A stretch of 17,344 nucleotides of DNA from Abditibacteriaceae bacterium (GTDB lineage: Bacteria > Armatimonadota > Abditibacteriia > Abditibacteriales > Abditibacteriaceae), in NCBI GenBank assembly GCA_031372065.1, contig JANMKN010000310.1, positions 1 to 17,344 on the forward strand, read 5' to 3'. Made by a program: the position numbers and the translations under genes. The notes under the pieces were generated by a model. It was not told where the DNA came from. It did no database searches and was given only the letters and a program-made list of their open reading frames with translations. Below are positions 6,759 through 15,178 of this stretch, piece by piece. Position 1 is the first letter of the stretch. Each line of letters begins with the position of its first letter.

Positions 6759-8303
6759 TTAAGAAATATCCGCTTGTGACATCCATTCGGATTCTTCTCT
6801 GGACTCTTCCGTGGAGCGGGAGCCTTGCAAGGTGATAGTCATGCGGCTTTCGCGGCCTGTATCACGGTCTTTGGCGACGGCCATGATGCGGCCATTTTCG
6901 TCGCAGCGAAAGGCAACGCTGAGGTTGGGACGCCCTTTGGGGCGGGGCGGGGTCGTATCAAGTTCAAATATACCAACCGGGCCTTTGCCGTAGCTTTCGG
7001 GGTCGTTGCTTTCGCCTTCGTAAACGCGAATTTGCACAAAGGTTTGGTTATCCACGGTTGTGGTATAGCCATGCCGCACTTGTGTGCAAGGCAAGGGCGA
7101 GAGGCTGGGAATGATGTGGTCAATCGTCGGCTTGCCGTTCGCCATGACGGCCACGCCGAGCGAATGCGATAAAACGTGCCCCACTTGCACTTGCGGCACA
7201 TGATCGTCTTTGTCGAGCAAGGCGGCTTGCAAGGCAGCACCTTTGGCAACGCATTCGTCGGGATCATGCAGCGTGGGCTTTTTGCCGGAGACGCGCTCGA
7301 TCATTTCGCCGACCATTGGCATTCGCGAACTGCCGCCCACGAGCAGCACATCGTCAATGTCTTGCCACTGCATATTGGCTTTATCCAACACGGCGCGCAG
7401 CAGCATTTCGGTGCGACCCAATAAATCAGCGGTGACGCGATTGAACGTGTCGCGGGAGATTTCGATTTTGACCGGGATTGACGTGCCGGTTGGCGAGCCA
7501 TCGGCATCGCGGCTGGGCACTTTCATCGAAATCGGCACCGAGTTTCGTCCCGATAGCTGGCGTTTGGCGGCGTTGGCTTTCAATCGCAGTTCGGCGATGA
7601 GTTCGTTGTCGTCGCCGATGTCCACATTATGCTCAGATAGAATTTGTTCTTCTACATAAGCCATAATGCGGTCATCCCAGTCTTTGCCTCCTAAACGGTG
7701 GTCGCCACCGATAGATAGCACATTCAATTGGTCGCCGCCGACGGAAAGGATGGTGACATCGAAAGTGCCGCCACCCAAGTCGTAAACCAGACATTTGCGT
7801 TCTTTGGTTTGACCACTGGCGACGCGATTGAGACCATAAGATAAAGCGGCGGCTGTTGGCTCGTTGATGATGCGCATGACCTGCAATCCGGCCAATTGAC
7901 CGGCTTCGTAGGTGGCGTGGCGCTGCGTTTCGGTGAAATAGGCTGGAACCGTGATCACAGCGCGTGTAATTTCATCGCCGAGTTCCGCTTGGGCATCTTG
8001 CACAATTTTTCGCAAAATGAGAGCGGAAATGAATTCGGGCGAATAAGAGCGATCACCAATGCGCACTCGATAATTGGGCTGACCCATGAAGCGCTTGATG
8101 AACTGCACCACATGATCCGAATCGGAAATGGTGCTTTGCAAGGCGGTTTCGCCCACCACATAAGTGGGAGGATCAAAAAACACCACCGAAGGAGTGGTGG
8201 TCTGACCATCGGCATTTTTCATAACGACTGGTTTGCCAAAGTCATCCACGACTGCGACTGCTGAATATGTTGTGCCCAAGTCTATGCCCACGGACCGGCC
8301 CAT
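6759..8303 (-). CDS. Hsp70-family protein (non-canonical DnaK paralog lacking the helical lid)
   Basis: GIDLGTTYS, TVPAYF, INEPTAAAL, DLGGGTFD and VGGSSRMP motifs. Beta substrate-binding domain 'TTTVDNQTFVQIRVYEGE'. Protein ends at 514 aa. GGGAG Shine-Dalgarno upstream. Confidence 0.93.
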   Translation of the reverse strand: MGRSVGIDLGTTYSAVAVVDDFGKPVVMKNADGQTTTPSVVFFDPPTYVVGETALQSTISDSDHVVQFIKRFMGQPNYRVRIGDRSYSPEFISALILRKIVQDAQAELGDEITRAVITVPAYFTETQRHATYEAGQLAGLQVMRIINEPTAAALSYGLNRVASGQTKERKCLVYDLGGGTFDVTILSVGGDQLNVLSIGGDHRLGGKDWDDRIMAYVEEQILSEHNVDIGDDNELIAELRLKANAAKRQLSGRNSVPISMKVPSRDADGSPTGTSIPVKIEISRDTFNRVTADLLGRTEMLLRAVLDKANMQWQDIDDVLLVGGSSRMPMVGEMIERVSGKKPTLHDPDECVAKGAALQAALLDKDDHVPQVQVGHVLSHSLGVAVMANGKPTIDHIIPSLSPLPCTQVRHGYTTTVDNQTFVQIRVYEGESNDPESYGKGPVGIFELDTTPPRPKGRPNLSVAFRCDENGRIMAVAKDRDTGRESRMTITLQGSRSTEESREESEWMSQADIS

Positions 8304-8376
8304 TCTTTAATGCTCCCGTTTTCCCAATGCCGAATTCTGCTTGGTGTTCATGTGGTGTGTTGGAAATCTACAACTC

Positions 8377-8385
8377 ATTTTAGCA
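8377..8385 (-). promoter_or_regulatory. Putative extended -10 promoter (TGcTAAAAT) of the Hsp70 gene
   Basis: Reverse complement of ATTTTAGCA, about 75 nt upstream of the ATG. Similar motifs precede the two other - strand genes. Confidence 0.45.
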
Positions 8386-8394
8386 AAGCCCGAT

Positions 8395-8466
8395 AGGTTC
8401 CAAGTTCAAAGTTTCAAGTTCAAGGTTGAAATGGACTTTGAACCTTCAACTCGAAACCTTGAACTT
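8395..8466. repeat. Palindromic array of degenerate heptamers (AAGTTCA / TGAACTT)
   Basis: aggttcc aagttca aagtttc aagttca aggttga ... tttgaac cttcaac tcgaaac cttgaac. Perfect 12-bp arms at 8416-8427 and 8455-8466, directly after the stop of the J-like gene. Confidence 0.8.
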
Positions 8467-9365
8467 TACCTCGCGCAACGCCGCAACAATTCGTCGTAGG
8501 GCATTCGCGATAAGGCTACTACAATGTTGCGGCGCGCGGCGCGCAGGGCATAGCGCCCGGCCAAAAGGCCGGAAGTGAGGCCAAGCACCGCGCCGCCGAT
8601 AATCATCGGCATTTTGCCGCCACTGATGAAATAACCAATCGCCGTAATGATTAAGAACACCAAGATGCCAGCGCTATAGCCCCAAGTTTGTCCGGCGGCT
8701 TCGAGTTCGCCTTTGATCAGTTCTCGCCGCTTGTGGTCGCGCCGTCGCTCCATGTCTTCGATATCCACCGCCACGCGCCGCCCAGCACTGGAAGCCAGAG
8801 GAGTGGAAGCCGGTGTAACGCGTTTGGGTGCCGCTGGTGTCGCGGGTCGAACGGGTATGGCAGGCTTGGGCGTCGCTGGAGCCGCCGGACGCGCTACTTT
8901 TTGGGCTGGAGGCGCGCCTGATGTAAGAGGAGCCTTCGCGGACGCCGCAGAAGGTGAAGAGGTGGTTGGCAATGCTTCGCCTCCAGCACCCATGCTGGGA
9001 ATCATGTCGTCGGTTAGACCGGAGGAGCGTCCCAATTCGCCGCTGGTAACATCCGCTTCACTTGTGGACGCGGGCAAATCTTCAGGGAACGGCTCGCCTT
9101 TGTTGAAGGCATTTAAGAAACGGTCATATTCGACGCGCCGGGTGGCATCCAATAAAAGCTGATGGGCTTGCGGCAAATGCACTTCATAAAGCTGCTGATA
9201 ATAGAAGCGCTTGCGGAAATTGTGGTGGTCAATGTTGCGCTGGGCTTCGAGATACAGTTGGTTGACTCGTTCGCGCAATTCCGATTCGCTGGCAGTCGCT
9301 GAAATGTCCAGCATCTTATACAAGTCAACGAATTCGTCCAGTGGCAGCACGTCGGTGACGGCCAT
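8466..9365 (-). CDS. Membrane protein with degenerate J-domain-like N-terminus (no HPD), Pro/Ala-rich linker and two C-terminal TM helices
   Basis: ATG at 9365 with AAGGAAAGGT upstream. 'DLYKMLDISATASESELRE...AHQLLLDATRRVEYD' matches J-domain helices I, II and IV. Hydrophobic segments 'GILVFLIITAIGYFI' and 'MIIGGAVLGLTSGLLAG'. Confidence 0.7.
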   Translation of the reverse strand: MAVTDVLPLDEFVDLYKMLDISATASESELRERVNQLYLEAQRNIDHHNFRKRFYYQQLYEVHLPQAHQLLLDATRRVEYDRFLNAFNKGEPFPEDLPASTSEADVTSGELGRSSGLTDDMIPSMGAGGEALPTTSSPSAASAKAPLTSGAPPAQKVARPAAPATPKPAIPVRPATPAAPKRVTPASTPLASSAGRRVAVDIEDMERRRDHKRRELIKGELEAAGQTWGYSAGILVFLIITAIGYFISGGKMPMIIGGAVLGLTSGLLAGRYALRAARRNIVVALSRMPYDELLRRCAR

Positions 9366-9494
9366 GAGATGCACCTTTCCTTGAGCGATGATGTTTGTGA
9401 CTTTCCGTGGCGGAAAGTGGGAACGTGGCCTGTTTCAGAGAACAACTGCCACCGTTATGCCACGCGGCGCGAAGGAGTTTAATCGCTGAACGCA

Positions 9495-11949: not shown

Positions 11950-11986
11950 TATAATTTTTGATGACATAGTCATCGTTTGTAGGAGA
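11950..11986 (+). promoter_or_regulatory. TATAAT -10 box, GATGAC-ata-GTCATC palindrome and AGGAGA ribosome-binding site
   Basis: TATAAT 11950-11955, palindrome 11960-11974, AGGAGA 11981-11986 before ATG 11991. No recognisable -35 box. Confidence 0.45.
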
Positions 11987-11990
11987 CCTT

Positions 11991-14126
11991 ATGGCCGCTG
12001 CTGATCTTCCCCGCGAAGCGTTAGCTCCCCAATCAGAATCAGGAGTTCAATTAAGGCGCCATCTTGACCGTTTGGCCGCGCGCCGCAACGCGCAAATGTT
12101 GTGGCAGGAAATCGCCCGCGCGCTGTGTTGGGGCTGCGGAGTCGCCGCGCTCTGCGTTTTGGCTTACAAACTGTATCTCGTGGACGGCTTGTGGTGGCAG
12201 CCGTTGCTGATTGTGCTGTTTTCGGCGCTTATCGGCTGGCGCAACGGCGCTTTGCGGCGCAATGGCACCTTCGACGCCGCAATGGATGCCGACAACACGC
12301 TGCAATTGAAAGATCGCCTTGCTTCGGCGCTGGCCTTCACTTATCCCGAAGAAATGCGCCGCCGTCAGCCCAGTGCGGGGGACAAAAAACTTTTAGCGCG
12401 CCTGCGTAATTTTTTCGTGGCGCGTCCGGCTTATGCCAAAGCCATCCCGACAGCGCAAACCTTTCTGGTGCCTGCGCTCATTAACGACGCCGCGACGCGC
12501 GCCGGACAATTAAATCCCAAAGAGGTTTATCCTTTTCAGTTTGGCCGCCCGCAAAAAGTGTTAGTTGCCTTGCTTTTGGCCTTTGGCGGCTCGTTTTTGG
12601 TGCCGAATCTGCCATTTTTGTTGCCCAAAGAAGAGCAAAACGACGCCAAGAAAACGCTGCCCGAAACCGGCAAAAAATTGCAGGCCATCGCCAAAGAAGT
12701 CAAAGACGACAAGAACATCAAAGAAACCGACGAGGCCAAGAAATTCGCTAAAAAGTTACAGGCACTCGGCCAACGCATCGAACGGGCGCGCATGGGCAAA
12801 AAAGAAGCGATGGTCGAAATGGCCCAACTGCGCGAAAAAATCGCCAAAGCCGCCAACAAACCGCAAGCGCCGTTCAAATCGCCCGACGAACCCGATGCCG
12901 GACTCGGTCAGCAGCAAATGCAAACCGACGAAGGCAAAAAAATGCAGGAGCAACTGAAAAAAGGCGACTTGGAAAAAGCCGCCAAAGAACTCGAAAAATT
13001 GGCCGATAAAATCGAGAAAAACGCCATGTCCAAGGAAGAGCGCGACAAAGCCGCGCACGACCTGCAAAAAGCCGCCGATGCATTGCGCAAACAAGGTGGG
13101 CAGCAAAATCAGGACATGGCGCAAAAACTCGAAGACGCCGCCAAAGCCCTGAAACAAAATCAGCAATCTCAACAAGGTCAGCAAGACAAACAAAACGGCC
13201 AGAAAGATAAGCAAAACGGCCAACAAGGTCAAAACGGTCAAAAGCAGGGCCAGAAACAAGGACAACAGGGCCAACAAAACCAGCAAGGTCAAAAACAAGG
13301 TCAGCAACCGGGACAGCAAGGCCAGCAGAATCAGCAAGGCCAGAAACAAGGTCAACAACAGCAAGGCCAACAAGGTCAGAAACAAAGTCAGGGCCAGAAA
13401 CAAGGACAGCAGCAAGGTCAACAATCCGGCTCGCAACCCGGCAACAAGCAAGGTCAGCAGCAGGGTCAGCAATCGCTTTCCAACGGCGCCAACGCGCTTC
13501 GCAAAATGGCGCAAGGGATGCAGCAAGGCCAAAGCGGGCAAGGCCAGGGACAGGGCAATTCCAACAGCGAATCGCTGCAAAAAATGCTCGGCCAAATTCA
13601 AGAAGCCGAACGCGGCGCTGGCAACAACGGACAAGGCCAGCCCAACCCCACCGATTGCCCGCCAGGCAGCACTTGAGAGGGTGGCGGCTCGTCCAGTTCG
13701 GACGGCAAGAGTCTCACCCCCGGCAAAGATTTAAAACCCAGCGATCCGCATTCCGCAGTTGGTGGCGGCGCCGGTCTTGGCCCGCGCAACAATGTGCAAG
13801 GTTTCAACAACAAGGGCGGCGGCCTATCAAATCAACACGCCAAGAAAACAGGCGACAAGCGTCGTTGGGGCGATGTCTGGGCCTCGAAACTGCCTGCCAC
13901 GCGCAAGCAAAAAGACCGCATTTTTGGCAAGCTGAACAAGAACGGCGAAATCGAACAAATTCAAGTCGAAGGCAACGCCAAAGGCGGCTCCGTCAAAACG
14001 CCGTATTACGACGTTTACAGCACTTACAAAAAAGAAGCCGACGACGCTGTCGGCAAAGAAGTTATCCCGCCCGCTTACAAACAGCCGGTGCGCGATTATT
14101 TTGACAGCATCAAACCCAGCAAGTGA
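11991..14126 (+). CDS. MoxR-associated membrane protein (three TM segments, coiled coil, Gln/Gly-rich; DUF4175-like architecture), 711 aa through an in-frame TGA at 13674-13676; candidate selenoprotein
   Basis: ORFs 11991-13676 and 13794-14126 are in the same frame and the 39 codons between them are open (EGGGSSSSDGKSLTPGKDLKPSDPHSAVGGGAGLGPRNN). The distal part carries the C-terminal motif 'TPYYDVYSTYKKEADDAVGKEVIPPAYKQPVRDYF' expected of such proteins. A SECIS-like hairpin follows the TGA. Confidence 0.75.
13155..13560 (+). repeat. Coding low-complexity Gln/Gly/Lys repeats (QQGQKQG, QQGQQNQ)
   Basis: Repeated CAA/CAG/GGT/GGC/AAA codons with varied synonymous positions. Boundaries are approximate. 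Confidence 0.85.
13677..13721 (+). promoter_or_regulatory. Candidate bacterial SECIS element
   Basis: GGGTGG(13679-84)/TCACCC(13714-19), GGCTC(13686-90)/GAGTC(13709-13), GTCC(13691-94)/GGAC(13700-03). Apical loop AGTTC starts 18 nt after the UGA, with G at loop position 2 followed by U. Confidence 0.65.
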
Positions 14127-14127
14127 G

Positions 14128-14182
14128 CAGTGGTCAGTGGACAAAAGAAAACGACCACTGACCCCTGACTACTGACCCCTGA
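14128..14182. repeat. Palindromic heptamer array (CAGTGGT / GACCACT-like)
   Basis: cagtggt cagtgga ... gaccact gacccct gactact gacccct. 8-bp perfect arms at 14128-14135 and 14153-14160. Confidence 0.75.
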
Positions 14183-14185
14183 ATT

Positions 14186-15178
14186 ATGGAAGCTACCGCA
14201 GCCGTCCACGAATTTGTCGAACGCGTCAACTCTGTCAAAGAACAGATGGCGAATGTTTTAGTCGGGCAGGAAATGATCATCGAAGGCGTGCTGATGTGCC
14301 TTTTCGGGGGCGGTCATGTCTTGCTCGAAGGCGTGCCCGGTTTGGGCAAAACGCTGCTGGTGCGCACGCTTTCACAATCGCTGGGCCTCAAATTTTCGCG
14401 CATTCAGTTCACGCCCGATTTAATGCCCGCCGATGTCACAGGCACCAACATCATCGCCGAAACACCCGAAGGTCGCAAAGAATTTCAATTCCAAGCCGGG
14501 CCGGTTTTCACCAACGTGCTTTTGGCCGACGAAATCAATCGCGCCACGCCCAAAACGCAAAGCGCCCTGCTCGAAGCGATGCAGGAGCGCAGCGTCACCG
14601 TCGCAGGCAAAACCTACAAACTCAGCGAGCCGTATATTGTGCTCGCCACGCAAAACCCGCTGGAAATGGAAGGCACTTATCCACTTCCCGAAGCGCAGCT
14701 TGACCGCTTTTTGTTCAAACTAAAAGTCTACTTCCCAACGTTCGACGAGCTTCTTCAAATCCTCAATCGCACCACAACATCCGCCGCGCAGGAAGCAAAC
14801 GAAGCGCTCGGCAGCGAAGAGATTTTGCAAATGCGCCGCTTAGTGCGCGAAGTGCCGATTGCGCCTCATGTGCAGGAACACGCCGTGCGTTTGGTGCTCG
14901 GCACTCACCCAGACAGCGAATATTCTACAGAACAAGTCACTAAATTTGTTCGTTATGGTGCCAGCCCGCGCGGCGCGCAAGCGCTTTTGCTCTCAGCCAA
15001 GGTGCGCGCACTCTTGCAACATCGCTTTCATGTCGCCATCGAAGACATTGATTGGGTGGCCCGCCCGGCGCTTCGCCATCGCATGATTCTCAATTTTGAG
15101 GGACAAGCCGAAGGCATCGAAGCCGATCAATTGATAGACGACCTTATCACACGGCACGCGCCTTTGGCAACAGCATAG
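14186..15178 (+). CDS. moxR: MoxR-family AAA+ ATPase (MoxR proper subfamily)
   Basis: Walker A 'LLEGVPGLGKT', 'RIQFTPDLMPADVTG', Walker B 'LLADEINRATPKTQSALLEAMQE', 'ATQNPLEMEGTYPLPEAQLDRF', 'GASPRG', 'ALRHR'. Confidence 0.96.
   Translation: MEATAAVHEFVERVNSVKEQMANVLVGQEMIIEGVLMCLFGGGHVLLEGVPGLGKTLLVRTLSQSLGLKFSRIQFTPDLMPADVTGTNIIAETPEGRKEFQFQAGPVFTNVLLADEINRATPKTQSALLEAMQERSVTVAGKTYKLSEPYIVLATQNPLEMEGTYPLPEAQLDRFLFKLKVYFPTFDELLQILNRTTTSAAQEANEALGSEEILQMRRLVREVPIAPHVQEHAVRLVLGTHPDSEYSTEQVTKFVRYGASPRGAQALLLSAKVRALLQHRFHVAIEDIDWVARPALRHRMILNFEGQAEGIEADQLIDDLITRHAPLATA

Follow-up and report, generated by a model that had tools for sequence, protein, structure and literature searches.

Bacterial selenoprotein genes whose SECIS element lies within the reading frame offer the nearest described parallel to the gene reported here, both combining an in-frame UGA with conserved flanks, sel genes, a hairpin and pairs of homologs with selenocysteine (Sec) or Cys (accessible parts of PMC13188914). 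The consensus given in those parts has a G in the first two loop positions, a distance of 16-37 nt from the UGA and a stable stem. Compared with the selenoproteins catalogued there, Sec would here lie in a low-complexity, disordered arm of a membrane protein that does not look like an enzyme; its place along that arm differs from lineage to lineage, and some members have two. Table 1 of that source describes, in its accessible form, no family as MoxR-linked or as carrying a GG[TG]U motif. A second likeness is to metal-binding selenoproteins with CU/UxxU motifs, such as MbdU and the FmdB-family zinc ribbon (accessible parts of PMC13188914), in which Sec replaces a probable metal-binding Cys, whereas the family described here has no NCBIfam match and bears its variable patch on a large membrane protein.

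A third parallel lies in gene order. MoxR-DUF58-BatA-VWA operons of the Bat and RL3499-RL3502 types have been tied to envelope integrity and aerotolerance (accessible parts of PMC5700661 and PMC3893208), and for the Bat-type clusters periplasmic reducing power has been proposed, while being called unproven (PMC5700661, in its accessible parts). Genes for the same MoxR (AAA_3), DUF58 and BatA+VWA proteins follow our gene in its relatives; in contrast to the described operons, an ABC ATPase and an ABC-2 permease lead the cluster and our three-helix protein stands between them and MoxR, and the accessible descriptions of those operons mention no selenoprotein.

A UGA-interrupted membrane protein gene and its neighbours

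The window, by which we mean the whole stretch of 17,344 nt analysed here, contains a plus-strand frame that is broken at a single internal TGA (codon 562) and yields 711 aa on read-through, the context of the putative Sec being PNPTD-C556-PPGST-U562-EGGG (Table 1). The original prediction had described this frame, the lack of a Shine-Dalgarno-like motif upstream of the GTG at 13794 and a conserved motif beyond the TGA, and inspection of the sequence confirmed all three. The gene is single-copy in this genome. Positions 13260-13760, TGA included, are matched without any difference by a contig of another sample (run X3, depth 3.5), which makes a one-off assembly error unlikely; this comparison is one of contigs, and a further run, X1, is not independent, as it may be the window's own source.

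Table 1. Features of the gene and of its downstream neighbour, in window positions
Feature	Position	Strand	Basis
Shine-Dalgarno-like AGGAG ahead of ATG 11991	11980..11984	+	sequence
Full gene, 711 aa with Sec562	11991..14126	+	terminal stop TGA 14124-26; stop-free full-length homologs
Membrane anchor, three predicted transmembrane helices (residues ~40-60, 64-85, 187-212)	12108..12626	+	hydropathy, K/R flanks, AlphaFold
Helical/coiled-coil stalk, residues 213-404	12627..13202	+	AlphaFold; nearly Cys-free family-wide
Gln/Gly low-complexity tether, predicted disordered	13203..13460	+	pLDDT <50 at 406-487
Cys556, local partner of the putative Sec	13656..13658	+	read-through translation
In-frame TGA, putative Sec562, GST-U (family consensus GGT-U)	13674..13676	+	homolog comparison, hairpin, second-sample contig
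SECIS-type upper stem-loop TCGTCC-AGTTC-GGACGG, loop 18 nt past UGA	13689..13705	+	consensus model
Conserved C-terminal helical hairpin PYY.VY..Y...A..A...E.IPP.Y...V..YF	14001..14123	+	family consensus, AlphaFold
MoxR AAA+ ATPase (AAA_3), 59 nt downstream	14186..15178	+	family match; only conserved cluster neighbour still adjacent here

AlphaFold (146 sequences) predicts an all-helical protein (mean pLDDT 72.9, pTM 0.47) in which the membrane helices lead into a helical stalk and then a disordered Gln/Gly stretch, followed by a low-confidence Sec region and a C-terminal helical hairpin. The anchor contains a conserved loop, D..L.L.ERLSSA ... DA in the family consensus, which is predicted to be cytoplasmic. 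The stalk holds only 5 Cys in 25,192 residues across the family; the Gln/Gly tether is lineage-specific, most of the distant homologs in the alignment being without it. The most conserved motif of the family lies C-terminal of the TGA, and its residues Y703 and F704 do not vary among 146 sequences.

The association with MoxR that had been proposed for this gene holds both here, where MoxR adjoins it, and in relatives: at 78 of their loci we counted MoxR (47), DUF58 (51) and BatA-VWA (35) downstream and the ABC-2 permease (53) and ABC ATPase (10) upstream, all of them lower bounds since the loci were cut at about 4 kb. In the present genome the cluster is dispersed, with DUF58, BatA-VWA and ABC ATPase genes on other contigs. 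Between the gene and MoxR lie short repeated units (window 14132-14185; cagtgg.. / ctgacccctga..), and analogous heptamer repeats, e.g. TTCAAAG/CTTTGAA, occur in that position in relatives of the genus. Elsewhere in the window (6759-9374, minus strand) an Hsp70-family gene follows an ORF of 302 aa that has no Pfam match, a start resembling a J-domain and hydrophobic helices at its C-terminus.

Probable selenocysteine at the internal UGA

Homologs were found in 158 of 401 genomes of the phylum, and the comparison below covers 148 loci, i.e. all 150 matches listed minus two contig-end fragments, with 9 further matches lying outside the set and with L058 (frameshift upstream) and L068 (TAA upstream) included. 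An in-frame TGA occurs in 45 of the 88 genomes with selA and in none of the 60 in which selA was not found, a result that in an incomplete genome does not amount to proven absence; as the genomes are related, the Fisher P of this association (1e-13) is overstated. The remaining 43 selA-bearing genomes lack a TGA in this gene, as do 103 of the 148 homologs overall. Where it occurs (45 loci, 46 sites), the TGA stands 110-198 codons ahead of the gene end and is preceded by GGT (30/46) or GGG (7/46), so that GG[TG]-U accounts for 37 of the 46 sites. The C-X5-U arrangement that had been put forward as the family motif did not survive this comparison: the Cys nearest to the UGA sits anywhere between -12 and +10, and C-X5-U is particular to this genome.

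Several relatives replace the UGA by a Cys codon, namely G029 (AGGT-C, versus AGGT-U in G038), G288 (KAGQT-C-QSC, versus QAGGT-U-LSC in G176) and, between sister genomes, G079 (C-QQAGACALDARQW, versus U-LSSGACALDARQW in G197), with CPGGT-U versus CPGGD-C as another pair within the family. At the counterpart of codon 562, which the original prediction had advised comparing, close relatives have Cys, and coding sequence is conserved on both sides of the UGA. Sec is not confined to one alignment column, and when its presence is mapped on an N-terminal-domain tree of 139 sequences, 22 changes are required as compared to a mean of 36 for shuffled labels, from which it follows that the Sec state is clustered and yet has been gained or lost many times. 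Four loci, L077 (in G385), L175, L185 and L193, have two putative Sec codons in tandem, separated by 7-12 codons. The hairpin of the first UGA contains or adjoins the second in L077, L185 and L193, the second one being inside the loop in L193.

The hairpin was sought with the SECIS model of PMC13188914 (as given in its accessible parts; limit -7.5 kcal/mol, contiguous stem), implemented in a script of our own and not in bSECISearch. In the window the stem 13689-94/13700-05 encloses the loop AGTTC (13695-99) with G in second position, and its contiguous stem, at -7.1 kcal/mol as computed here, narrowly misses the published limit. Folded as a whole, the 60-nt segment (-20 kcal/mol) is no stabler than dinucleotide shuffles (z -0.78, 45/200 as good), and taken alone its stability is not significant. 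Synonymous re-coding of this peptide gives -6.5 kcal/mol or better in only 3 of 100 cases, and of the 1261 long ORFs that end in TGA in this genome, only 22 are followed by a comparable hairpin at 18-24 nt. Across the phylum a stem of -7.5 kcal/mol or better, with G in the first two loop positions, is found at 42 of the 46 TGA sites, compared with 22.5% of synonymous shuffles, 30/206 Cys codons of non-TGA homologs and 263/3496 other codons, and the loop starts 18-23 nt past the UGA in 44 of 46. Two subfamilies show two-sided stem pair changes with the register fixed, and at one site a change from Cys to Ser accompanies a compensating base in the stem; some downstream Cys codons that fall within a SECIS stem may be kept for the RNA.

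The genome (93.9% complete) possesses tRNA-Sec, selA, selB and a selD-type ORF, the machinery whose presence had been proposed as a check. The selD-type ORF adjoins selA and has an in-frame CAG-TGA motif of its own at its start; it is from this motif and this position that we take it to be selD. The genes for selA, selD (in-frame TGA) and tRNA-Sec are clustered (L001:1343-1430, G000:C287), and selB lies on a separate contig, C44. When the whole genome was scanned for TGA codons with coding-like flanks and a hairpin, 10 sites emerged, among which codon 562 ranks third, beside sites of the CxxU, TxxU and UxxC types. Other probable selenoprotein sites lie on G000:C129(-), C351(-), C355(+) and C65(-); judging by their motifs, NRCFY-U is presumably AhpD/CMD-like, CFTGG-U and RGEF-U-PTT peroxiredoxin-like, and FSSG-U-GTC a UxxC thioredoxin-like protein. 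Two more, WNST-U-MDS and ANTY-U-NTV on G000:C107(-) and C371(-), have coding-like flanks and SECIS-type hairpins and no familiar motif, and may be true stops or unfamiliar selenoproteins. Formate dehydrogenase alpha with Sec gave no match above cut-off in this genome. In G002, of the same genus, the homolog has lost the Sec motif and selA and selB are fragmented (G002:C8:669353-670369 and 915747-916553), either because the Sec trait is decaying or because the assembly contains indels; given the latter possibility and an intact tRNA-Sec, this genome is not counted as evidence of co-loss.

The family extends to a second phylum (the record is titled Planctomycetota), with homologs in 61 of 201 genomes. 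Among the best 30 of these loci, 14 carry an in-frame TGA in the same arm (17 sites, often GGT-U; two TGAs in each of three loci), and 15 of the 17 sites are followed by a hairpin of -7.5 kcal/mol or better. selA is present in all 14 TGA-bearing genomes and in 28 of the 30, and hence discriminates little there. Taken together, the machinery, the restriction of TGA to selA-bearing genomes of the phylum and the Cys counterparts in close relatives uphold the reading of the codon first proposed, and on these sequence features we regard the decoding of UGA as Sec as close to certain.

The arm, its chemistry and competing explanations

Three hydrophobic segments are recognizable in 118 of 146 sequences. 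Lys/Arg counts of 3.8 before helix 1, 0.9 in loop 1 and 2.1-2.4 in loop 2 favour an N-in arrangement, and the bias flanking the third helix is flat (2.43 vs 2.34), so that the orientation rests on parity, N-in implying C-out. On this model the Sec arm probably lies outside the cytoplasm, facing the periplasm. Cys and Sec make up 2.07% of the arm as opposed to 0.02% of the stalk; at least one such residue is found in 108 of 147 arms, at least two in 97 and none in 39.

We consider it very likely, as a whole and on comparative sequence grounds, that the gene encodes, through UGA-specified Sec, a membrane subunit that belongs to an ABC-2/MoxR/DUF58/BatA-VWA system and bears a Cys/His/Sec cluster on a probably periplasmic arm. 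The product would be an inner-membrane protein that starts with three helices and continues as a long helical stalk, followed by a flexible arm rich in Gly and a conserved C-terminal hairpin; SelB and tRNA-Sec would decode the UGA of the arm by means of the RNA hairpin just downstream. It would act as an accessory subunit of the envelope system, a physical association that we infer from gene neighbourhood, and Sec would be interchangeable with the other members of a small Cys/His/Sec cluster that is found in the arm only. This cluster may bind a soft metal, with ligands from a single chain or from two, and may tune or sense the state of the complex. The arm site would be accessory, as roughly a quarter of homologs have neither Cys nor Sec in the arm.

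We favour only tentatively the suggestion that Zn, Cu or another soft metal is bound by the cluster. Metal-like patterns do occur, among them CPKCGKYHPGGT-U, H..H....C....U, CPTH...C......U and CKICQGMG..P-U-ATCDGQG, the last of which resembles the DnaJ CxxCxGxG repeat. CxxC or CxxH is nonetheless found in no more than 27 of 147 arms. Sec has at least three further Cys/His/Sec residues within -25 to +15 at 10 of 46 sites and at most one other Cys/His at 26, which makes a complete metal site a minority condition. Zinc-finger-type sites are moreover unusual in the periplasm, so that one of the two, predicted topology or metal binding, may be mistaken. The window protein retains a single further ligand, Cys556, so that a dimer site and a plain Se-S bond are equally possible for it. 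A Sec-free clade (L097, L098, L109, L111, L116, L145) has as many as 11 Cys, which recur at intervals of 6-7 residues on helices (ECL..A..C...G.C..A..CL), a spacing that suggests inter-helix disulfides or a multi-metal site.

The strongest competitor, possible though somewhat doubtful, is a redox pair: Sec and Cys on a swinging arm would undergo selenylsulfide exchange and so reduce or cross-link periplasmic clients of the Bat-like system. A Cys or a second Sec within 12 residues at 42 of 46 Sec sites (U-x2-C in 6), the predicted disorder of the arm, the proposed, unproven periplasmic reducing power of Bat-type clusters (PMC5700661, accessible parts) and the predominance of redox proteins among catalogued selenoproteins (PMC13188914, accessible parts) all speak for it. 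Against it, neither Pfam, NCBIfam and AlphaFold nor Foldseek searches of the PDB (no match at E <=0.001) reveal a thioredoxin or other known fold, the spacing is variable, His is frequent, some arms contain up to 11 Cys, and the neighbour clusters of relatives hold no conserved reductase.

That the UGA serves mainly as a selenium-dependent switch, low selenium giving a 561-aa form without the C-terminal hairpin and thereby turning the complex down, appears improbable. It would suit the invariable position of the UGA upstream of the most conserved motif, the tandem UGAs of four loci, which would steepen the response, and the four Sec sites with no Cys nearby. The direct Cys counterparts and the roughly 100-fold enrichment of Cys in the arm of homologs, on the other hand, point to the chemistry of the residue, the C-terminal hairpin is probably across the membrane from MoxR, and no known selenium-related gene occurs in the neighbour clusters of relatives. 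The more specific idea of a selenium switch acting on MoxR is unsupported given the predicted C-out arm and the 39 of 147 arms devoid of Cys and Sec, to which may be added the many homologs without TGA, and although the 561-aa form may arise when selenium is low, nothing marks this truncation as regulatory.

A true stop, whether it arose by nonsense mutation or in assembly or marks a conserved division of the gene in two, is very improbable. Gene callers do split the gene, and 38 of the best 150 database representatives (picked by eye; 7 identical to phylum loci) end at the Sec motif, as is expected if callers stop at UGA; an ATG also follows the UGA closely in some relatives. Yet the stop at the motif is TGA at all 46 and 17 sites of the two phyla and never TAA or TAG, it occurs in the phylum loci only with selA, the frame is kept, the hairpin is present, the second sample has the same TGA, and the first downstream ATG lies anywhere from +1 to +96 codons away and is missing at 6 of 46 sites, the window gene included. 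A genome-wide reassignment of UGA to Trp or Gly, or a suppressor, would fit the Gly-rich context and is excluded for practical purposes by the 1261 ORFs of at least 250 aa, this gene among them, that end in TGA, by tRNA-Sec being the sole tRNA with a UCA anticodon in this genome, and by the Cys that close relatives have at the counterpart position.

A probably uncatalogued family and its meaning

Scans of 18 read-through or Cys members against Pfam and NCBIfam found no family above cut-off. A weak coiled-coil match to CarD_C (22 bits) was below the cut-off of that model, and DUF4175/TIGR02302 reached at best 14.1 bits against a cut-off of 27.3 in the 18 members, PF13779 having 0 matches in the genome. 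The layout of DUF4175/TIGR02302, with N-terminal membrane helices, a Gln/Gly-rich region and a similar C-terminal motif, is presumably comparable; the actual likeness is one faint N-terminal match (E 0.012), and the members described here have ~520-710 aa as against an 825-position model. In the ESM Atlas, the homolog P0002 retrieved unnamed clusters only, most commonly from Chloroflexota and Planctomycetota. A profile search returned 13,970 database representatives at E <=0.001, many of the weaker of which may be coiled-coil noise; one truncated NCBI homolog is labelled Armatimonadota. No such family is listed among the 119 of Table 1 in the accessible catalogue (PMC13188914), where entries defined by cd or PTHR models were compared by name only, and the accessible parts of BSepDB and deep-Sep make no mention of it. 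Nor did searches of the accessible literature on selenoproteins, MoxR/DUF58/BatA, DUF4175, RL3499, Armatimonadota and Planctomycetota turn up a description of it. The claim of a new selenoprotein family is in keeping with these searches: the gene encodes a very probably Sec-containing member of a family absent from the catalogues covered, with a known decoding mechanism in an unusual setting.

The finding would add a large family, with Sec forms in at least two phyla, to the approximately 119 catalogued prokaryotic selenoprotein families, and the many truncated public entries (the 38 of 150 noted above) make annotation correctable. Because Sec here would sit in an arm that is disordered and lets it change place, the family could escape searches that depend on Sec and Cys sharing an alignment column. 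On a more speculative note, the sequences are compatible with a multi-phylum class in which Sec, rather than being a fixed catalytic residue, belongs to a portable GG[TG]-U plus SECIS cassette. Gains, losses, shifts and duplications of this cassette would have taken place in a periplasmic, disordered arm, where it would act as metal or redox sensor for a conserved ABC/MoxR/VWA envelope machine; we think this conceivable without favouring it, and if true, it would provide the first chemical handle on that long-unexplained system. As Sec usually marks a chemically active site, its presence suggests that MoxR-DUF58-BatA systems involve redox or metal chemistry, which a one-codon change would make testable.
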